Source: Candidatus Omnitrophota bacterium
GTDB taxonomy: Bacteria > Omnitrophota > Gorgyraeia > Gygaellales > Profunditerraquicolaceae
Assembly: GCA_030650425.1 (NCBI GenBank)
Contig: JAUSED010000012.1
Coordinates: forward strand, 905 to 64,904
Direction: 5' to 3'
DNA length: 64,000 nucleotides
Shown: positions 15,475 to 57,801 of the stretch, in pieces
How positions within the stretch are numbered: the stretch's first letter is position 1
Layout: each line of letters opens with the position of its first letter
The notes under the pieces: model-generated
Database searches by the model: none
What the model was told of the DNA's origin: nothing
What the model saw: the letters and a program-made list of their open reading frames with translations, nothing else
Translations under genes and position numbers: made by a program

Positions 15475-15489
15475 GCAAGTTTAATTATA

Positions 15490-15541
15490 AAAAATCTAAA
15501 CCCTCTGTGATAGAGCATATTGCAGAGGGTTTAGATTTTTT
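15490..15541 (+). terminator. Rho-independent terminator (A-tract / perfect 15-bp stem / T-tract; potentially bidirectional)
   Basis: aaaaAATCTAAACCCTCTG-tgatagagcatattg-CAGAGGGTTTAGATTttttt, located 16 nt after the stop of the repeat-protein gene. Confidence 0.65.
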
Positions 15542-15552
15542 ACCCTGTTATT

Positions 15553-18934: not shown

Positions 18935-19654
18935 ATGGGAAAATTAATTCGGGTTCTTTCAGCTTTAGTCATGAGCGTAATGTTAGTTCCCATATTTTGC
19001 TCGGCTGATATTAACGACGACCTGAATTTAGCCGTCAAAAATAACGATATCAAAAAAATCAACGCATTGATAGCTAAAGGCGCGGATGTGCATGCCGCTA
19101 AAGACGTCAATGGCTGGACTCCCCTGATGTGGTCAGCATCTTTTGGTAAACTTGAAATCGCTAAACTCTTAATAAATAAGGGTGTGGATGTCAATGTCCA
19201 AAGTAATGATGGGGGGACTGCTCTTATGGTAGCCTCATACAGGGGGAATACTGAAATCGCTGAGTTTTTAATAGACAAAGGCGCGCAAGTAAACGTCCAG
19301 AATTCAGACAAATGGTCGCCCCTGATCTGGGCGGCATCTTTTGGCCGGTCTGAAACAGTAAAACTCTTGATTGATAAAGGCGCGGATGTAAAGGCCAAAG
19401 CCTCTGACGGCACTACGGCTCTATGGCGAGCCGCCTATAACGGCCATAACGAAGCAGTAAAGTTTTTGATAGCCGCTGGCGCGGATATTAATGCCCATGA
19501 TGTTTCCAATAGCACGGTCCTGGATGCAGCTGAATTAAAAAACCGCTGGGAGACGTCCCAGATTCTTAAAGAGGCAGGAGCTCAACGAGCTTCAAGCCTC
19601 CTTGGCAGTTCTAAACAAACGTATGGAGCAGAGGAGGATCAAGGGGAGGAATAA
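18935..19654 (+). CDS. Secreted ankyrin-repeat protein
   Basis: Signal peptide 'LSALVMSVMLVPIFCSA'. At least 5 ankyrin repeats ('GWTPLMWSASFGKLEIAKLLINKGVDVN' pattern). Confidence 0.8.
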   Translation: MGKLIRVLSALVMSVMLVPIFCSADINDDLNLAVKNNDIKKINALIAKGADVHAAKDVNGWTPLMWSASFGKLEIAKLLINKGVDVNVQSNDGGTALMVASYRGNTEIAEFLIDKGAQVNVQNSDKWSPLIWAASFGRSETVKLLIDKGADVKAKASDGTTALWRAAYNGHNEAVKFLIAAGADINAHDVSNSTVLDAAELKNRWETSQILKEAGAQRASSLLGSSKQTYGAEEDQGEE

Positions 19655-21190: not shown

Positions 21191-21895
21191 ATGAGAAAGG
21201 CATTGTTGGCGTCTAGCGGCATTGTTTTTTGTTTTTTCTTGTGCGGCGCAAGCGGCGTATATGCCCAGCAGGGAGAAGATTCGTCTGTTACAAATGTGGG
21301 TCAGGAAATAAGTTCGGATAAGCAGCAAATCAAGGACCAGAGGCAGGAGATATCGCGGAATGCGCAAGCATCTCGTGCGGAAGAAGCAAGCTTGAGGCAG
21401 CAGATTAAAGCTGCTTTAGATGCGGGTGACAGAGCAACAGCTAATCAATTGAGAGGACAACTTAAGGCGGCTCATCAGGAAAACGTCCTAGAGAAACAAC
21501 AGGATATACAGAGTATGCGCGATAGCAGGAATGAATTAAAGGCCGATGTTAATCAGGCTCGTCAGGAAGGATTTATGCATCCACAGGCTAATGCAGGCAA
21601 TAATCCTCCCGGGCCTGCTGGTGGTCCCGGTGCAGGGCCTAATAGAGGAACTAGAATGGATAGAGATAACAATCCTCCCGGGCCTGTTGGTGGACAAGGG
21701 AGTAATTGGGAAAATCGTCCCGGTCCTCAAGGCGGGCCCGGCGCAAGTCCTAATATAAGGCCTCAAGGAAGCAACCCTCCCGGACCACAAGGCGGTCCAG
21801 GTGTTAGCCGCGGTAATCCTCCCGGGCCTCGAGGCGGAGCCGGGTCAGGAAGAAATGCCGGCGCTCCACGTGGCGGTAAAAGCGGAAGAAAATAG
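21191..21895 (+). CDS. Secreted low-complexity Pro/Gly-rich protein with NPPGPxGGPG repeats
   Basis: ATG at 21191 lies 7 nt after 'AGGAGG'. Signal peptide 'LLASSGIVFCFFLCGASGVYA'. Gln-rich coiled region, then 5 'NPPGP.GG.G' repeats. Confidence 0.6.
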   Translation: MRKALLASSGIVFCFFLCGASGVYAQQGEDSSVTNVGQEISSDKQQIKDQRQEISRNAQASRAEEASLRQQIKAALDAGDRATANQLRGQLKAAHQENVLEKQQDIQSMRDSRNELKADVNQARQEGFMHPQANAGNNPPGPAGGPGAGPNRGTRMDRDNNPPGPVGGQGSNWENRPGPQGGPGASPNIRPQGSNPPGPQGGPGVSRGNPPGPRGGAGSGRNAGAPRGGKSGRK

Positions 21896-21902
21896 AAAAG
21901 AT

Positions 21903-21982
21903 GTCATTGCGAGCGAGCGTAGCGAGCGAAGCAATCTCTGAAAAACGAGATTGCTTCGGGCACTGCGTGCCCTCGCAATGAC
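21903..21982. repeat. Compound palindromic intergenic element (outer 11-bp IR GTCATTGCGAG/CTCGCAATGAC; inner 12-bp stem CGAAGCAATCTC/GAGATTGCTTCG; embedded palindrome GGGCAC-tgc-GTGCCC)
   Basis: Read directly. A related half-copy occurs at 29594..29626. Confidence 0.55.
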
Positions 21983-29663: not shown

Positions 29664-30623
29664 ATGTGGTCTTTACAACTAAGGATGTGGCTATTACTGA
29701 CAATTCTTTTCGGGTTTATCTACGCGCTTGTTGTTGTCGTCGGAAAGACATTCCTGCACGTAGGAGATTTTAGTTTTTATCTGATCATCTCCTTGATTTT
29801 GATGTTTATCCAGTATATGATCGGCCCGAAGATCGTTGAATGGACGATGCGGGTTAAATATATTCAGCGGACGGATAACCCGAGGTTATTCCAGATGGTC
29901 GAGAGTCTGGCTGCGCGGGCGAATATCCCGGCGCCTAAAATAGGCATCGCCCAGATCCAGATCCCCAACGCCTTTGCCTTTGGCAGAAGTATAGGCGATG
30001 GCCGGGTCTGCGTTACGCAGGGGATTCTGAATTTATTGAGCGACGAAGAATTGAAAGCGGTTTTAGGGCACGAGCTGACGCATTTAAAGAACAGGGATGT
30101 TTTGACGATTACGCTTCTTTCGGTGATCCCGATGGTGATGTATAGGATTGCCTGGCAGTTTCTTTTTTACGGACGCCGCCGCGACGAAAGGGGAGGCAAT
30201 ACCGTATTAATCGGATTAGCCGCGTTTATTTTTTATTTTATCACTAATCTTTTGGTGCTTTATGCCTCGCGTATCCGCGAGTATTTCGCGGACAAGGGCT
30301 CGGTGGCTTTAGGCAACCGTCCTTCAGTGCTTGCCTCCAGCCTTTATAAGCTTGTTTATGGTTCGGCGCGAATGAATCCGGAAGCGCTCAAGGAATCCGA
30401 AGGCCTGAAGGCATTTTTTGTCAATGACCCCTCCCAAGCCCGGAAAGAAATTAAGGATTTAGCGCAGTTGGATTTAGATAAGAGCGGAACAATCGACCCT
30501 TCGGAGCTCGCCCTTTTACAAAGTAAGAATATACGTTTAGGCGTGGGTGATAAATTGATGGAGCTGTTAAGCACCCATCCCAATATGCTTAAGCGCATCA
30601 AAAAGCTTTCGGAATATCATTAA
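29664..30623 (+). CDS. htpX: M48-family zinc metalloprotease HtpX
   Basis: 'GHELTHLKNRD' (HExxH) and N-terminal TM helices. Confidence 0.85.
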   Translation: MWSLQLRMWLLLTILFGFIYALVVVVGKTFLHVGDFSFYLIISLILMFIQYMIGPKIVEWTMRVKYIQRTDNPRLFQMVESLAARANIPAPKIGIAQIQIPNAFAFGRSIGDGRVCVTQGILNLLSDEELKAVLGHELTHLKNRDVLTITLLSVIPMVMYRIAWQFLFYGRRRDERGGNTVLIGLAAFIFYFITNLLVLYASRIREYFADKGSVALGNRPSVLASSLYKLVYGSARMNPEALKESEGLKAFFVNDPSQARKEIKDLAQLDLDKSGTIDPSELALLQSKNIRLGVGDKLMELLSTHPNMLKRIKKLSEYH

Positions 30624-30643: not shown

Positions 30644-30696
30644 AGGGGACACTTTCCGTCAGGGCTATTGCGGAGCTCTTCACAGGAAAGTGTCCC
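30644..30696. repeat. 53-nt palindromic element, copy 0 (intergenic, 20 nt after the htpX stop): GGGGACACTTTCC-N27-GGAAAGTGTCCCC
   Basis: 13-bp perfect inverted repeat with a 27-nt loop. Same family as the four intragenic copies in 30906..34595. Confidence 0.8.
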
Positions 30697-30838
30697 CTTC
30701 TGCTTCAGAAGCAATCTTTTTCCAACAAAAAAATCGCCTCCTTTCCCTTGTTTTTTTTACCTATATGTTACACTTTCATCAATAATCCTATAGTCCTAAA
30801 TTATGGAGGTAGTTTAGGACTGCTATGCAGTACTTGAA

Positions 30839-30882
30839 GCCGGATTGACACAAAAAGGGTCGATTCCGGCTTTTATTTTTTG
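30839..30882 (+). terminator. Terminator-like hairpin plus T-tract in the 5' leader of the giant gene (possible attenuator)
   Basis: GCCGGA...TCCGGC stem followed by TTTTATTTTTT, ending about 24 nt before the ATG at 30906. An additional 9-bp hairpin (AGTCCTAAA/TTTAGGACT) lies at about 30792-30821. Confidence 0.35.
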
Positions 30883-30905
30883 CTGGTTTCTTAAAAAGTT
30901 AAAAA

Positions 30906-33900
30906 ATGCGTAAAAGAACCTCAAAAATTCTGGCTATAGTTTTGTCCTTTATTTTAATCTTCCAGCAGATTGGTTTTGCTCAGGTTGCCACAGAACTGAA
31001 TATCGCCGGCCACCTTAGCGCGCTGCGTAACTCTTTTGTGGTCGACAAATTCCGACCCTTGCATCTGCGTTATCTGCAGTATCTTCCTCGAGAAAATAGT
31101 TTTAAGCTCTATTTAGACAAAGGCGACCAATTTCCTGCAGTAGGGAATACCCTAGCAGTAGGGGACACTTTCCATCAAAGCTATAAGGAACCACTTAATA
31201 GGAAAGTGTCCCCTACTGACTCAACCAATTTAACTAATGCAACTAAGGATTTACTCAATTATTTCTTCATCGGTTTAACCCTCCCCAATGACTCCTTCTG
31301 GGTTAACCTGCGTCCAGACTCTCCAGATAACATCATCGATGACTATTTAGCCAAGACTGACGTAGGTAAGATAATGCTGGAAACCGACCTCCAGCTTAAA
31401 AAAGACACAGCCCTAGCCACTTCTCCAGAGACCCCTGAAGGAAGAGACTACTGGAATAAGCTCTATACCAAAGCAGGAGAGCTCTTTGGCTCTGAGAACA
31501 TCACTATTCCCACTCTCACCCGGCCTTGGATTGTTCCGGATGAAATTATTATCAGAGAAACTACTGACTCAGCCTACATCTACAAAGCCACCCTCAAGGT
31601 AATGCTTGAATCTGATTACCTTTCAAGTAAAAGCAGGGGACATTTTCCGTCAGGGCTATCAGGGAACTCTCAAAAGGAAAGTGTCCCCTACGCGCAGTAT
31701 CAGTTTAAGGATGAACGTCTCAAGCAACTCAATGAATACTCATCACAACTCATCCGAGAACTAATCATTCCTAAACTCACCAAAGAAGTTAACTCCAGTA
31801 AAAGATACGCTCCCTTAAGGCAGGTCTATTACTCTTTAATCTTAGCCCAATGGTTTAAGGCTAGGCATACTCCAACAGAAGGGGACATTTTCCGTCAGGG
31901 CGATAAGGGAACTCTTAAAAGGAAAGTGTCCCCTGATGCTCTCATCAACTCCCGTAACCTCACTAACCTTACCTCCCAACAACCCTGGCCCAAAGCCACC
32001 TACTTCCAAGCCTACCAGAAGTCCTTTAAAGACGGTGAATACAATATCCAGGAACCGGTCTATACTCCTACAGGCCAGGTGATCAGGAGTTATTTTTCAG
32101 GAGGAGAAAACTTTGGGAATATAACATCTCCTCAAATGATAATAGTCCCGGCAAACACCCCTGTTTCTCCGGCAGTGAAGAATTTGATTGAAGCGCCCGC
32201 CGTCTCTTCTCCGCTGATTAGAATTGGAAATCAGGAATCAGTACAAGAGAGTGTTGACTTTTATAAACAGCGGTTAGATGAACTTAAAGAAAGATACAGG
32301 GAGAGTATTATAATAACTGAACGTAATTATAAGAGGACAAATGATTTTACGAAAAGGAATGCTTCATTATTTTTGGCGTATTATCAATTTATTAAAGCAT
32401 TAACTTCTAATCTTGATTCCGGGGAGTCAGTTTATATATATCCAGTTCCAGGCCCAGATTTTGCATTTCAGATGCACGCGGATACTTTCGCGTTGAATAA
32501 TGAGGCTACAGATAATCTCTGGGGAAGGGAATTATTGGAAGAATCCGGTATATTGGGAAAGCCTGACTATGAAAATTTTGATAATGATATAATATTCCAG
32601 AAATTATTGTCAAAGGGTAAGTATTTGGATGCCTATGACCTAAAAAATTATTTCGATATAAAAAGAGAGCAAGATAAGAAATTTATTTTCGTTATGAAAG
32701 GATTTATGTATATTGCGCAGCAGTTTATAAGCTCAGAAACGGAGAGACGTAATTTCTTAGAAAATTTACTGCTCCATTTTTTAAAAGTTAGTGACAAAAT
32801 CATAATATTTGAAGAGGAAGATCAAAAGTTTTTCGAATCTCTACCAGCGATCAATGAATATTATAGGCTTCTTTACAGGGATGATGGAATATTTGAAGGA
32901 ACGAAAAACGCTTCTATAACTAAAGGAATAATAAAATTAGTTTCGATTCCGAATCGAATTGCAATATATGAAAAAACTAAGGAACCGGAGAGAGCTATAG
33001 AGAGTTCTGGATTTCCGCTGGAAGATAATCCCGCCGCCGGCTCGCCGGTGCAGAGGCAATCCGTCTCTTCGGCGGTGGAAGAGGGGAAACAATCCGCCAG
33101 CTCGGAGATGAGTCAGGAGCAGCAAGAGATTGAAGAAATAAACCATGATTTCTCAAGGTTTTCTGACTATTTAAAAAGAAAAGATTTTAGTCTTTACGTG
33201 TATAACAAAACTAGGCTCAGTTATTTTCTGAAAGCTAGAGGCATAGATGCTTTTATGGAAGTTATAAAATATAACTATAATGTATATCCTGACGAAATAA
33301 TGCAGCGTTTCATTTCAGGATTGATGAATGTAATTCTTTCTATGCGATATAGAGATCTTGCAGGCCAGTGGCACGGGCTTACAAAAGACATGCTTCAGCC
33401 TCATTTAGATTTTATTACTGATATTGCTTTAAAGCCGGCAAAACGAGCTTTGGCTTACACCATAGATGTAGCGTTAACTCATTCGCCTTCGGGTAAAGTG
33501 ATAATGTATCAAAACAAACGGCTTGGTGCGGTATATCCTATTATGGAAAAGGATATGCAAGAGTTGTTAAGAGAGAAGGGATTCGGTGTATTTGAGGTTG
33601 ATTTGGATAATATTGAAAATAAAACTAATGATGAGGTCGTAGAATATATAAATACTATTATGCAAAAATCTGAATTCTCTAAATCCCGCATTATTTTAGT
33701 CCGGTTCAAAATTCCATCCACTATAACGTATACGGGTTTAGAGTCTCAAAAGGAAAAACTCAATACTTTAGATATACTCAGCAATTTGTCAAGAGCACCT
33801 ATCGTAATGGTTGACGGCTCTGCGCGTAATCAGGTCTCAACAGCGCAGCAGGTGGTAAGGAAATCCGACCAGGGCCAAAAAATAGATATGTTTAATGCTG

Positions 33901-34595
33901 ACATCTCATACCCTTATCAATACTTCAATTTCGACGCTCCCGATAACATAGATATGTTACTTCCTGCAATTTCTTCAGATGACAAAAACGGCGAACTTTA
34001 TGATGAATTCGCAAAAAGGATGGCAAGCAGATTGGCTAAAGATGCAGATTTTTGGAAACAAATAGAAGATAGGAGAATGCGGGTTGCCAAGAGAGAAGGG
34101 GGTTCAGCCGGTTTGGCTATAAGAAAAACCCCTTTCGCTGGCTCGCGACCGAGCCAGAAGGGCGAGGGACCGGAGCAGGAGAAAGCCGCCTCTCTGGCGG
34201 TAGGGGATGTAAAAGGCGGCATCGATTTCCGCGCGCTTCCTATTGTCACCGAGGCGGTGAGCAATTTAAGGAGTAGCCTTGGGGACAGTTTCCTAAGAAC
34301 AAACTCCTCAGGAATTTATCGGAAACTGTCCCCTGCGGACGAGTGGCAGGAGATAGAAAGAATGGCGAGTTCCGGTATCACGCCTTCACCCGAAAGGATG
34401 AAAGAATACCTGCAAGCCTCCTGCGCCAAAGGCGACATCCCCCAGGATAAAGATAAGGTTATCCTCTGTATAGCTGATATTCTAAGAGGCGAAGAGGAAA
34501 CCTGTTTCGCAACCGACCCCACCTTGCGCGACATCCTTGTTGTGCTGGAAGCCTCCGGCTCAAGTACGGAATTAAACAAAATATTCTTAGGGTAG
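30906..34595 (+). CDS. Giant secreted protein (1229 aa) of unknown function, carrying four in-frame palindromic-element insertions
   Basis: Signal peptide 'ILAIVLSFILIFQQIGFAQVA'. Long ORF with protein-like composition. No recognisable catalytic motifs. Confidence 0.7.
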   Translation: MRKRTSKILAIVLSFILIFQQIGFAQVATELNIAGHLSALRNSFVVDKFRPLHLRYLQYLPRENSFKLYLDKGDQFPAVGNTLAVGDTFHQSYKEPLNRKVSPTDSTNLTNATKDLLNYFFIGLTLPNDSFWVNLRPDSPDNIIDDYLAKTDVGKIMLETDLQLKKDTALATSPETPEGRDYWNKLYTKAGELFGSENITIPTLTRPWIVPDEIIIRETTDSAYIYKATLKVMLESDYLSSKSRGHFPSGLSGNSQKESVPYAQYQFKDERLKQLNEYSSQLIRELIIPKLTKEVNSSKRYAPLRQVYYSLILAQWFKARHTPTEGDIFRQGDKGTLKRKVSPDALINSRNLTNLTSQQPWPKATYFQAYQKSFKDGEYNIQEPVYTPTGQVIRSYFSGGENFGNITSPQMIIVPANTPVSPAVKNLIEAPAVSSPLIRIGNQESVQESVDFYKQRLDELKERYRESIIITERNYKRTNDFTKRNASLFLAYYQFIKALTSNLDSGESVYIYPVPGPDFAFQMHADTFALNNEATDNLWGRELLEESGILGKPDYENFDNDIIFQKLLSKGKYLDAYDLKNYFDIKREQDKKFIFVMKGFMYIAQQFISSETERRNFLENLLLHFLKVSDKIIIFEEEDQKFFESLPAINEYYRLLYRDDGIFEGTKNASITKGIIKLVSIPNRIAIYEKTKEPERAIESSGFPLEDNPAAGSPVQRQSVSSAVEEGKQSASSEMSQEQQEIEEINHDFSRFSDYLKRKDFSLYVYNKTRLSYFLKARGIDAFMEVIKYNYNVYPDEIMQRFISGLMNVILSMRYRDLAGQWHGLTKDMLQPHLDFITDIALKPAKRALAYTIDVALTHSPSGKVIMYQNKRLGAVYPIMEKDMQELLREKGFGVFEVDLDNIENKTNDEVVEYINTIMQKSEFSKSRIILVRFKIPSTITYTGLESQKEKLNTLDILSNLSRAPIVMVDGSARNQVSTAQQVVRKSDQGQKIDMFNADISYPYQYFNFDAPDNIDMLLPAISSDDKNGELYDEFAKRMASRLAKDADFWKQIEDRRMRVAKREGGSAGLAIRKTPFAGSRPSQKGEGPEQEKAASLAVGDVKGGIDFRALPIVTEAVSNLRSSLGDSFLRTNSSGIYRKLSPADEWQEIERMASSGITPSPERMKEYLQASCAKGDIPQDKDKVILCIADILRGEEETCFATDPTLRDILVVLEASGSSTELNKIFLG
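31161..31213. repeat. 53-nt palindromic element copy 1 (intragenic; stem extended to 17 bp; encodes GDTFHQSYKEPLNRKVSP in frame 0)
   Basis: agtaGGGGACACTTTCC-N27-GGAAAGTGTCCCCtact. Confidence 0.8.
31636..31688. repeat. 53-nt palindromic element copy 2 (intragenic; translated in a different frame as RGHFPSGLSGNSQKESVP)
   Basis: GGGGACATTTTCC-N27-GGAAAGTGTCCCC. The U.G wobble keeps the pairing. Its loop is about 85% identical to copies 0 and 3. Confidence 0.8.
31881..31933. repeat. 53-nt palindromic element copy 3 (intragenic; frame 0, encodes GDIFRQGDKGTLKRKVSP)
   Basis: GGGGACATTTTCC-gtcagggcgataagggaactcttaaaa-GGAAAGTGTCCCC. Confidence 0.8.
34281..34333. repeat. 53-nt palindromic element copy 4 (intragenic; frame 0, encodes GDSFLRTNSSGIYRKLSP); carries a compensatory base-pair change
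   Basis: GGGGACAGTTTCC-N27-GGAAACTGTCCCC. The C->G change in the 5' arm is matched by a G->C change in the 3' arm. Confidence 0.8.
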
Positions 34596-34654: not shown

Positions 34655-34942
34655 GTGGATAGAATCTCTGGGGATTTTATTTGGGATCGCCGCAAAGAGC
34701 TAATCAACATAAAGAAGCATGGCGTTGATTTTGTTGCCGCTGCCAGCGTATTTAGAGATACAAAAAGAAAGATTTACACTGATTCCAAGCACAGTGAGGC
34801 CGAAGAAAGATTATTCTGTGTAGGTAAAGTAGGCGGTAAAATCCTAACAGTCAGGTTTATTTACCGGCATGATAAAATCAGGATCTTTGGAGCCGGGTAT
34901 TGGAGAAAGGGAAAGGTTTACTATGAGAAAGAAAACGATTAA
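34655..34942 (+). CDS. brnT: BrnT-like (DUF497) ribonuclease toxin
   Basis: 95 aa, GTG start. 'IWDRRKELINIKKHGVDF...' is typical of the BrnT/DUF497 family. Confidence 0.6.
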   Translation: MDRISGDFIWDRRKELINIKKHGVDFVAAASVFRDTKRKIYTDSKHSEAEERLFCVGKVGGKILTVRFIYRHDKIRIFGAGYWRKGKVYYEKEND

Positions 34943-35159
34943 TGCGGATATGCCTATTGGCAAGTTAACTAAAGTCAAGGATTTTCTTCCTCCTCCGGCG
35001 CAGCTTGCTATGCCCGAAGAGACTACAAAAATCACTATATCCTTGAAGAAATCCAGCGTAGAATTCTTTAGGCATGAGGCGCAGCGCTATCACAGTAAAT
35101 ATCAGCGGATGATACGTGAATTGTTGGATAGGTATGCTATGCAGTACGCTAAGAATTAA
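34923..35159 (+). CDS. brnA: BrnA-like antitoxin
   Basis: ATG at 34923 overlaps the toxin's 3' end. ~78 aa, with a C-terminal 'RYHSKYQRMIRELLDRYA' RHH-like segment. Confidence 0.5.
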   Translation: MRKKTINADMPIGKLTKVKDFLPPPAQLAMPEETTKITISLKKSSVEFFRHEAQRYHSKYQRMIRELLDRYAMQYAKN

Positions 35160-56966: not shown

Positions 56967-57801
56967 TCCTATGTTAGTCGATACGCATTGTCATTTGGAT
57001 TTTCCGGAATTTGACGCTGATCGGGATGAAGTAATCAATCGGGCAAAAGAGCAGGGCGTAGGCTATATTATCAACATAGGTGCGAGTCTTGAGGGTTCTA
57101 AGAAATCCGTAGAATTATCCCAAAAATATGCATCTATCTATGCGACGGTGGGAATTCATCCTCATGAGGCGGATAGTTTTACTCCTGAAACAGAAAAAAG
57201 CATAAGGAATCTGGCAAAGGAAAAGAAAGTCGTCGCCATAGGCGAAATCGGCTTAGATTATTTTAAGCATTATTCCGAACCCCGAAATCAGCTCCCTGTA
57301 TTTACGCAGCTACTTAAGATTGCCAAAGATTTTAATCTTCCGGTGGTTATCCATACAAGAAACGCGCAGGTGGATACCTTGAAGGTTTTAAAAGAAGCAA
57401 TGCCGGTTAAAGCGGTGGTGCATTGTTTTTCCGGAGATAAAGTTTTTTTAAAAGTTTGCTTGGATTTAGGTTTTTTAGTTTCTTTTACTTGTAATATTAC
57501 GTATCCCGCCAAACTATCTAATAGCAGGCGGGATCCCGCCCTCGCTGAAATAGATTGGCGGGATAAAAAAGCCGAAGATTTAAGAGCGATCGTTAAGGCG
57601 GTTCCACTCGATAGATTGTTACTGGAGACTGATGCGCCATATTTGTCTCCGGAAGGCTTTCGCGGGAAGAGGAATGAGCCGGCTCAAGTCTGCCTTCTTG
57701 CTGAAACCGTGGCAAATCTTAAAGGTTTGAAATTAGAAGAGGTTTCCAAAGCCACAACAGAAAACGCTAGAGGTTTCTTTAATTTACCGGAGACTCAGTA
57801 A
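56947..57801 (+). CDS. tatD: TatD-family metal-dependent DNase/hydrolase (YabD-like)
   Basis: 'LVDTHCHLDF' and 'IGEIGLDY'. Confidence 0.85.
   Translation: MRPKRNNPMLVDTHCHLDFPEFDADRDEVINRAKEQGVGYIINIGASLEGSKKSVELSQKYASIYATVGIHPHEADSFTPETEKSIRNLAKEKKVVAIGEIGLDYFKHYSEPRNQLPVFTQLLKIAKDFNLPVVIHTRNAQVDTLKVLKEAMPVKAVVHCFSGDKVFLKVCLDLGFLVSFTCNITYPAKLSNSRRDPALAEIDWRDKKAEDLRAIVKAVPLDRLLLETDAPYLSPEGFRGKRNEPAQVCLLAETVANLKGLKLEEVSKATTENARGFFNLPETQ

Follow-up and report, generated by a model that had tools for sequence, protein, structure and literature searches.

In-frame palindromic repeats in the loops of a large Omnitrophota protein and their probable link to a REPIN/RAYT-type system

How does one short palindrome come to lie four times inside a single open reading frame (ORF), read in two different frames, without closing it? 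The question is raised by a 64,000-nt stretch of DNA from a metagenome-assembled genome (MAG) of a Candidatus Omnitrophota bacterium (assembly GCA_030650425.1, contig JAUSED010000012.1, positions 905–64,904; the whole stretch is hereafter called the window), in which an earlier inspection of the letters (the original prediction) had noticed a 53-nt palindromic element, once between genes and four times within an ORF of 1229 aa. We report here that the element belongs to a dispersed repeat family, that the four coding copies are insertions, that they lie in protein loops, and that in relatives the family is associated with genes for REP-associated tyrosine transposases (RAYTs; REP, repetitive extragenic palindrome). 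The five copies are probably non-autonomous palindromic elements of the REPIN/TIR type (TIR, terminal inverted repeat), belonging to a RAYT system and tolerated in the loops of the host protein.

The five copies and the protein loops that hold four of them

We searched the window with the pattern GGGGACAYTTTCC-N27-GGAAASTGTCCCC, allowing up to 3 mismatches. The motif GGGGACAnTTTCC-N27-GGAAAnTGTCCCC was found five times where none was expected, and none of 100 shuffled sequences matched; a search of the 64 kb for 13-mer half-sites with up to 2 mismatches returned ten arms only, all from the same five copies. The copies and the two genes they touch are:

29664..30623, + strand, htpX-like gene (Peptidase_M48; Pfam PF01435, E 2.6e-38), with copy 0 in its 3' flank
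30645..30697, no strand assigned, copy 0, an exact pattern match; intergenic, 3' region of htpX; loop GTCAGGGCTATTGCGGAGCTCTTCACA
30906..34595, + strand, host gene, an ORF of 1229 aa containing copies 1–4
31161..31213, no strand assigned, copy 1, in-frame in hot-spot loop 1 (aa 86–103), peptide GDTFHQSYKEPLNRKVSP
31636..31688, no strand assigned, copy 2, hot-spot loop 2 (aa 244–261), peptide RGHFPSGLSGNSQKESVP
31881..31933, no strand assigned, copy 3, hot-spot loop 3 (aa 326–343), peptide GDIFRQGDKGTLKRKVSP
34281..34333, no strand assigned, copy 4, variable linker of the conserved C-terminal domain (aa 1126–1143), peptide GDSFLRTNSSGIYRKLSP

All five copies are 53 nt long and consist of 13-nt arms around a 27-nt loop. 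A 14th pair is usually supplied by a flanking A/T, and the stem of copy 1 reaches 17 pairs, spanning 31157–31217. When folded as RNA, the copies gave −25 to −33 kcal/mol with z-scores of −4.1 to −6.5 (copy 0: dG −33.4 kcal/mol, z −5.8). Pattern match, shuffles and folding thus agree with the original prediction of five 53-nt copies with 27-nt loops and stems of 13–17 bp. Its placement of copy 0 between genes, 20 nt past the htpX stop, is correct if the A of the 14th pair at 30644 is counted; the copy proper begins 21 nt past the stop codon (30621–30623). Copies 1, 3 and 4 begin at codon position 1 and are read as GD(T/I/S)F...(R/K)K(V/L)SP, and copy 2 begins at codon position 2 [(31636-30906) mod 3 = 1] and is read as RGHFPS...KESVP, so that the codon positions confirm four in-frame copies in the ORF with copy 2 offset by 1 nt.

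Compared with one another, the window copies differ at 0–2 of 26 arm positions and at 3–23 of 27 loop positions. The loops of copies 0, 2 and 3 form one subfamily, from which the loop of copy 1 is more distant, and copies 0–3 share one loop orientation on the coding strand. We rejected the idea that copy 4 is an inverted copy of the others, as its loop scores at noise level in both orientations. Copy 2 had been described as about 85% identical to copies 0 and 3; the figure stands for copy 0 (85%) but not for copy 3, to which copy 2 is 94% identical. The base-pair swap noted in copy 4 is real: stem position 8 is G and C in this copy, and C or T and G in the others. Upstream of copy 1 (window 31122–31152), GGCGACCAATTTC, which encodes GDQF, agrees with the 13-mer arm in 10 of its 13 positions; GGGAATACCC shows a looser likeness to the arm. 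The peptide 'DKGDQF' is restricted to homologues bearing an insert at site 1. Judged by this resemblance, the two segments may be decayed outer half-sites of a composite element.

The host protein (MDO8663009.1 / Q7K98_07325, Omnitrophota MAG) has an N-terminal hydrophobic segment, a conserved N-domain of ~400 aa, a variable middle part and a conserved C-domain of ~130 aa with the motif GGIDFRxLPIVTQ...EEW...GIxPSxERIKEY...DILRxEEE. A Pfam search of the protein gave nothing significant, and a Foldseek search of the AlphaFold N-domain model against the PDB gave nothing below E = 1. At E<1e-5 there are 1317 homologues sharing the N-domain and the C-domain, the latter being common to all of the best-listed 120; their middle parts differ widely (methyltransferase, phosphoesterase/metallophosphoesterase, HEAT, GNAT, radical SAM, GGDEF, HPr, phosphomutase and others). 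The host protein has a very large, Omnitrophota-specific architecture with highly diverse enzymatic 'cargo' between its N- and C-domains.

Because most of the best 120 of the 1317 homologues, which made up our alignment of the host family, have short loops at all four sites, copies 1–4 are insertions; the comparison with homologues lacking them, which the original prediction had called for, thus came out in its favour. At site 1 the usual homologue sequence is DKGDLKNPxT and the window protein is about 29 aa longer (net); at site 2 it is DYLKDSxxYNFKD, with no insert, and the window protein has a net gain of 20 aa. Site 3 has the minimal loop length in 79 of the 120 homologues (window protein: +15 aa net), and site 4 is usually a short linker (+5 aa net). 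The net change never equals 53 nt at any of the four sites, as expected if only frame-restoring events survive. In the AlphaFold model of residues 1–440 (mean pLDDT 64, pTM 0.61), pLDDT falls below 50 in the coil segments 80–98, 241–263 and 325–338; these coincide with copies 1–3, and the coil there sits between confident secondary-structure elements.

The element also occurs at the same sites in three paralogues from the source MAG (P0003, P0009 and P0024) and in homologues from elsewhere (P0007, P0016, P0038, P0083, L028/L105 and L133). Site 1 is read in frame a (GDTF...KVSP) in the window protein and in frame b (RGHFPS...ESVP) in P0024, P0016, P0038, L028 and L133, with a change of frame inside the element in P0009; for site 2 the window protein has frame b and P0083 has frame a. 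With the same element read in two frames, and in up to three frame combinations at one loop among homologues, the conserved unit is the nucleotide sequence and not the peptide, as had been proposed. When the N-domains were stripped of inserts and placed on a neighbour-joining tree, the proteins with the element were interspersed with those lacking it, at four or more separate positions. Within the family, P0001 and P0003 are close: their peptides at sites 2 and 3 are nearly identical, and their N-domains are 90–95% identical. Exchange of cassettes at the elements was considered and rejected: identity to the paralogues is even across sites 1–3 and declines only where the N-domain ends, near aa 400, and in the absence of a breakpoint at the element sites such exchange is unsupported.

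The same four loops hold other palindromes as well. A second type of insert, two GGGACWGTCCC units 3–5 nt apart, is present there in 22 of the 120 homologues (P0005, P0009, P0025, P0036, P0047, P0048, P0083 and others) and gives the peptide GLSPKGTVP or RDSPLRGQSL according to its frame and orientation; the insert was confirmed at the DNA level in L031 (8340–8372), and it has the GGGAC/GTCCC core in common with the 13-mer arms. A third family at these loops, the 'CGCAATGAC' palindrome, is read as SLRGA...EAI or ARND (P0036, P0050, P0077, P0118). The window itself has an intergenic 80-nt palindrome at 21903–21982 (GTCATTGCGAGCGAGCGTAGCGAGCGAAGCAATCTC, an 8-nt spacer and GAGATTGCTTCGGGCACTGCGTGCCCTCGCAATGAC), relatives of which occur close to elements in L003 and L018; the SLRGA...EAI/ARND peptides suggest that this family, too, has been inserted in-frame at the hot-spot loops. 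Altogether, about 30% of the 120 listed homologues carry some palindrome-derived peptide at these sites.

The repeat family and the transposase genes of relatives

Scans of public sequences yielded ~120 further non-redundant copies, nearly all from Omnitrophota MAGs or metagenomes and mostly intergenic, so the family is not limited to one gene; the restriction to a single gene that would have refuted the original prediction was not seen. When genomes were scanned at one per species, 30 stretches had the pattern, of which 26 were from Candidatus Omnitrophota MAGs; the MAG STB_56 has 18 exact copies over 14 contigs, and a scan of JGI metagenomes added 105 stretches with 109 copies. No copy was found in the viral contigs scanned. 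The non-redundant set with flanks comprises 122 copies of 48–57 nt (modes 50, 51 and 53), and the family unit is two inverted 13-mers (GGGGACAyTTTCC) around a poorly conserved spacer of 22–32 nt. The majority of copies lie between genes, outside long ORFs, and both orientations occur. The genes around them are housekeeping genes only, and clustering of 1354 ORFs near the copies disclosed no transposase and no recurrent partner. Three matches from outside the Omnitrophota (L010, L020 and L024) are perfect long palindromes or terminator-like and were set aside as probably unrelated chance matches.

Over the 122 copies, stem position 8 is C:G in 63, of the T.G type in 46, G:C in 10, A:T in 1 and something else in 2, and the diverged copies recovered by a relaxed search show compensated changes at several arm positions. 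Arm complementarity really is maintained across the repeat family. The covariation claimed for the window copies holds in this sense, and the swap of copy 4 recurs in the ten G:C pairs; the T.G pair of copies 2 and 3, which had been counted as a further signature, is instead a marker of the lineage formed by the 46 family members and not an independent event.

About one fifth of the copies have extra outer half-sites 25–26 nt from the inner ones (13mer-N12-13mer-loop-13mer'-N13-13mer'). In STB_56 a 25-nt loop stands in both orientations relative to the same conserved outer spacers, a 'flip-flop' between inverted arms (L021 1105–1155 and L022 1831–1881 versus L023 4480–4530 and L027 225–275). 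L012 (1434–1609) has a composite giant palindrome of 2.8 tandem 26-nt left-arm units, a loop and 3.5 perfect right-arm units (GGAAAGTGTCCCCTTCAGCGTGGGGC).

Copies inside other genes were counted on low-G+C contigs; long frames through elements on contigs of 64–72% G+C gave arginine-rich translations and were judged spurious. By Pfam, the element lies in-frame inside the 5-formyltetrahydrofolate cyclo-ligase (5-FTHF) domain in L135, outer half-sites included; after the membrane anchor of the type II secretion protein C, GspC, in L111; and in the C-terminal tail of the PFOR beta subunit in L073. Pfam also places an element at the junction of an exosortase and the segment downstream (L011, 4926–4979) and exactly between AcrB and DeoR-type helix-turn-helix regulator modules (L089, 2157–2205), in both cases without a stop codon. 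These two may be in-frame fusions of neighbouring genes, or a stop may have been lost or misassembled.

The 13-mer arms are also present in contigs of high G+C content (0.64–0.72; L036, L045, L047/L071, L062, L077, L080, L090, L098, L099, L114, L117, L123 and L128) and in a Planctomycetales MAG (L003), where they stand within a longer palindrome, gaaaat-GGGGACACTTTCC-ATTTCC...GGAAAT-GGAAAGTGTCCCC-attttc. The arm motif is thus not confined to Omnitrophota and may, from these occurrences, span the Planctomycetes-Verrucomicrobia-Chlamydiae (PVC) group.

Transposase genes were sought by tblastn with IS200 TnpA and E. coli RAYT sequences as queries, which gave weak matches only (E 0.1–0.3). One of these led to a true Y1_Tnp gene in L068 (1077–1664; Y1_Tnp E 2.4e-15). 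We rejected this gene as the partner of the element, from which it is 7.7 kb away; it is flanked by a different palindrome, GGGTCAGACCC, with inverted copies of this type at about 990–1010 and 1668–1690, which points to several RAYT/repeat pairs in these organisms. When the L068 protein was used as query, a second gene was found in L121, 174 nt from a perfect complete element and with related motifs on both sides. Its protein of 162 aa (RAYT clade of ~161 aa) has 805 homologues at E<1e-10, and all those with a taxon name are from Omnitrophota.

Seven independent Omnitrophota Y1_Tnp loci were then compared: L121, reached via the element, and six fetched via the transposase protein. In the five of the seven genes scanned with NCBIfam, the best model was NF047646, REP-associated tyrosine transposase (75–87 bits against a cutoff of 80, passed by four of the five), and the IS200 model reached only ~20 bits. 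All seven loci have three 13-mer-like units on each side of the gene, and the two sides are mutually inverted: CAGACGCTTTCC-N10-GGAAAsTGTaCCC-N10-GGAAAGTGTCttt upstream, at about −125 to −65, and GGGTACACTkTCy-N10-rGGGACAnTTTCC-N10-GGAAAgCGTCTGg downstream, at +8 to +70. The outer units contain CGTC/GACG, and arms identical to those of window copy 4 stand beside RAYT genes in L139 (GGGGACAGTTTCC) and L144 (GGAAACTGTCCCC). At the six loci fetched via the protein, 13-mer-like units with up to 3 mismatches were 30-fold denser within 150 nt of the gene than elsewhere (21 hits in 1.7 kb versus 15 in 36 kb; p ~1e-19; L121 left out). The P0174 transposase gene has the same context on 13 contigs, and those of P0144 and P0175 have a Memo / AP-endonuclease / S21 neighbourhood in common; RAYT genes thus behave as single-copy chromosomal genes at conserved loci. 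A look-up of accessions placed six named RAYT homologues in genomes other than the source MAG. Of the possibilities raised in the original prediction, a REP/RAYT-like element is therefore the one favoured, since RAYT genes of the same phylum are flanked by the same motif.

No direct repeats of 3 nt or more were found at the insertion flanks of the 122 sites. Direct repeats of 2 nt numbered 29 against 7.6 expected and were TA or AT. With the T.G asymmetry and the loop-closing bases used to orient the copies, 55–70% of loop types had A at −4, G at −3 and A at −1 in the 5' flank, a consensus of AGHA (H at −2) with no mirror on the 3' side; window copies 1–3 have AGTA, AGCA and AGAA before GGGG. 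By analogy with the GTAG tag of REPs, AGHA could be a target preference or a cleavage tag.

Proposed mechanism and alternative explanations

The assignment to the REPIN/RAYT type is based on the inverted units, the weak spacer, the hairpin, the dispersed and mainly extragenic copies of relatives, the lack of target duplication and the RAYT genes flanked by the units. Cleavage of a single-stranded hairpin by Y1/HUH enzymes is established for IS200/IS605 and RAYT enzymes, and from these we infer the chemistry of transposition here. In such a scheme, the arms would fold into a hairpin in single-stranded DNA, which would be recognised by a single-copy RAYT-type HUH/Y1 transposase whose own gene is flanked by the same units, and the enzyme would cut and rejoin the hairpin in trans without duplicating the target site. 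Most insertions would settle between genes, often just past a stop codon, where copy 0 lies; those in coding sequence would survive only if the frame stays open and the site is a tolerant surface loop or linker. Survival of this kind would account for the different frames of one element and for a net change that is never 53 nt. The host family would offer four tolerant loops in many paralogues, and with these the loops could repeatedly have gathered the 13-mer element and other palindromic repeats. Activity of the system in the source genome and neutrality of the insertions for the host protein would both be part of this picture.

Several observations weigh against a RAYT origin of the copies. 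Although related to the dispersed 13-mer, most of the RAYT-adjacent units differ from it (cores of GACG instead of GACA), no RAYT gene lies within the 64-kb window, and no source-MAG protein is among the best 120 of the 805 RAYT homologues. Classical REP tags are absent from the foot of the hairpin, where the 5' flank is AGHA and not GTAG; a 2-nt TA duplication is indistinguishable from an extension of the palindrome; and we found no near-identical pair of filled and empty sites. At least 11 copies are known in the source MAG (5 in the window and 6 deduced from paralogue proteins), and at least 10 of these 11 are spread over four paralogues from a single protein family, with no copy in the other ~60 kb of the window; such a concentration is not obviously predicted by simple random transposition plus selection. 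Candidate causes of the bias are a target preference, insertion into older palindromes and gene conversion between paralogues. REPs themselves have been reported as targets of insertion sequences (ISs), according to PMC3733652.

A stronger version of the RAYT explanation is that the four loops are specific landing sites for RAYT-mobilised palindromes and not merely tolerant, with a target preference (5' AGHA), insertion into older palindromes or the structure of single-stranded DNA as candidate causes. We think this distinctly unlikely. If true, it would account for 10 of the 11 copies lying in four paralogues, for the ~30% of homologues with palindrome-derived peptides and for three unrelated palindromic families at the same sites, and the gain, loss and replacement of REPINs would be a built-in generator of loop diversity in exported proteins whose enzymatic cargo varies widely.

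The concentration in one family could alternatively reflect copies that spread or persisted mainly through homologous recombination or gene conversion among paralogues, or that were inherited through gene duplication, with no repeated transposition. Such a history would fit the four same-MAG paralogues with the element at the same sites, the close likeness of P0001 and P0003 and the strong concentration of window copies in the host gene, but it is unlikely as the main explanation: element-bearing homologues of other genomes are scattered among element-free ones, one loop may hold different frames with different flanking residues, unrelated palindromic families occupy the same loops of other homologues, and identity shows no breakpoint at the element sites. 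Recombination also explains spread within the family but neither the origin of the element nor the intergenic copies, and is in part complementary to RAYT-driven transposition. We regard as quite improbable a classical miniature inverted-repeat transposable element (MITE) derived from an IS, whose 13-nt arms would be terminal inverted repeats for a DDE transposase (e.g., IS630/Tc1, which duplicates TA) moving double-stranded DNA. In its favour are perfect inverted ends, the small size and dispersal of the elements, flanks that frequently read TA...TA with an excess of 2-nt repeats, and outer half-sites at 25–26-nt spacing that resemble multi-site transposon ends; however, no duplication of 3 nt or more exists, the TA/AT flanks are equally well an extension of the palindrome, no DDE transposase is among the recurrent neighbours, no gene type other than Y1/RAYT was found to have the motif on either side of it, upstream and downstream, and an interior of 22–32 nt would be very short for a double-stranded synaptic complex.

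The original prediction had also allowed for a functional mRNA structure, that is, hairpins selected for pausing during secretion or folding, RNA processing or stabilisation, recoding or regulator binding. The predicted hairpins are indeed very stable, the arms are conserved far above the loops even in coding sequence and in two frames, copies 0–3 share their loop orientation on the coding strand, and REPs elsewhere are reported in PMC3733652 to stabilise mRNA. Nevertheless, most homologues have no insert at these sites, copies of the family stand mostly between genes and in either orientation, loops are not conserved from one subfamily to the next, Rfam covariance models matched nothing in the whole window at gathering score, unrelated palindromes sit in the same loops of other homologues, and arm conservation is equally expected of a transposase recognition site; this part of the prediction was not upheld, and we consider such a function very improbable. 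A repeat selected at the protein level, as a conserved peptide motif of a secreted protein, would explain why three copies give similar peptides [GDxF...(R/K)K(V/L)SP], but the same DNA is translated in a different frame in copy 2 and in several homologues, copy 0, like most of the family, lies outside coding sequence, and the peptides lie in low-confidence coil; the frame differences and the intergenic copies refute it, and we give it virtually no credence.

Some features of the window stand apart from these questions. One of them adjoins copy 0 directly on its 3' side and comes from a consensus scan only:

30697..30720, + strand, terminator-like hairpin with T-run

Directly 3' of the host gene, two ORFs overlap (window 34655–34942 and 34869–35159): one encodes a ribonuclease toxin of the BrnT family (PF04365, E 6.5e-20), and the other, of 96 aa and without a Pfam hit, is likely the BrnA-type antitoxin. 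A 64-nt palindrome with arms TATCCCGCC...GGCGGGATA lies at 57502–57565 and a terminator-like hairpin with a 25-bp stem at 15488–15542. Collagen-like NPPGPxGGPG repeats in a small secreted protein (21601–21849) and ankyrin-like repeats of 99 nt (19067–19495) were also seen.

Significance and comparison with known systems

The case is a known phenomenon, 'selfish palindromes in coding sequence', with a new repeat family; the kind of element is not new. Candidatus Omnitrophota, a poorly studied uncultivated phylum, thereby gains a repeat/transposase pair, the 13-mer doublet and the ~161-aa RAYT clade; in the literature searched we found no description of either. REPIN-type elements are usually treated as strictly extragenic, and here they are seen to lie in-frame, in different frames and several to a gene. 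For annotation, peptides such as GDTF...KVSP, RGHFPS...ESVP, GLSPKGTVP and RDSPLRGQSL in Omnitrophota proteins are repeat-derived and should not be taken for functional motifs, and they can mislead alignments and the placing of domain boundaries. The concentration of copies in one protein family is a testable lead on how RAYT-type transposases choose their targets, a poorly known subject.

Bacterial MITEs (Correia/NEMIS, Nezha, ERIC) resemble the Omnitrophota element in being small and non-autonomous, with inverted ends, stable RNA hairpins and occasional in-frame fusions. They are typically 70–300 bp long, with target-site duplications and DDE-type parent IS elements. Of these traits of size, duplication and parent IS, none was found for the Omnitrophota element.

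Rickettsia palindromic elements (RPEs; Ogata et al., 2000, reviewed in PMC10969869) are likewise palindromic selfish DNA inserted in-frame in genes with the ORF kept, and the likeness drawn in the original prediction is a fair one as to function. It does not extend to membership: RPEs are Rickettsia-specific, ~100–150 bp long in the case of RPE-1, with a conserved peptide per family and no linked transposase, whereas the Omnitrophota element has 53 nt, is read in two or three frames and has a RAYT link. The descriptions of RPEs thus set it apart, and by this comparison it is RPE-like in its effect on the host protein without being an RPE. RPE-4 and RPE-6 are described in PMC3733652 as CGTC-tagged REPs.

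Intragenic REPs have been known since 2013 from Opitutus terrae, Thauera, Xanthomonas and others (PMC3733652). In these cases, as here, units or dimers inside ORFs add ~20–30 residues, sometimes stand twice in one gene or recur at a shared site of related genes, and have an inferred loop or linker position; O. terrae also belongs to the same PVC superphylum. The Omnitrophota case differs in having four copies per gene, the same four loops reused across a very large lineage-specific family, and several unrelated palindromic families sharing these loops.

TIRtrons are RAYT-like (TIRYT) genes flanked by inverted repeats that share GGGGWSAS (Di Nocera et al., 2013, PMC3733652). The Omnitrophota system is similar in its tyrosine transposase genes flanked by inverted repeats at fixed distances and in its moderately abundant dimeric or clustered repeat families. 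Arm starts GGGGACAC and GGGGACAG fit the GGGGWSAS quoted there exactly, in a comparison made on this 8-nt motif only, and GGGGACAT, the start in 46 of the 122 copies, does not. Published cases come from Acidobacteria, Stenotrophomonas and others, and in Omnitrophota each gene flank has three 13-mer-like units.

REPIN/RAYT systems (Bertels and Rainey, 2011, PMC3116915) differ from what we describe in several respects: the 13-mer unit of Omnitrophota is no palindrome when taken alone, the spacer has a length of only 22–32 nt, the GTAG tag is missing, the phylum is Omnitrophota and not Proteobacteria, a sizeable share of copies are in-frame in genes, and the system is known here from sequence only. 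Common to both are two short inverted units around a less conserved spacer, with a hairpin predicted for single-stranded DNA or mRNA; numerous copies that are dispersed and chiefly extragenic, in our case in relatives and metagenomes; insertion without target-site duplication; and a single-copy Y1/HUH gene at a conserved locus that is flanked by the same units, in our case in relatives of the source organism.

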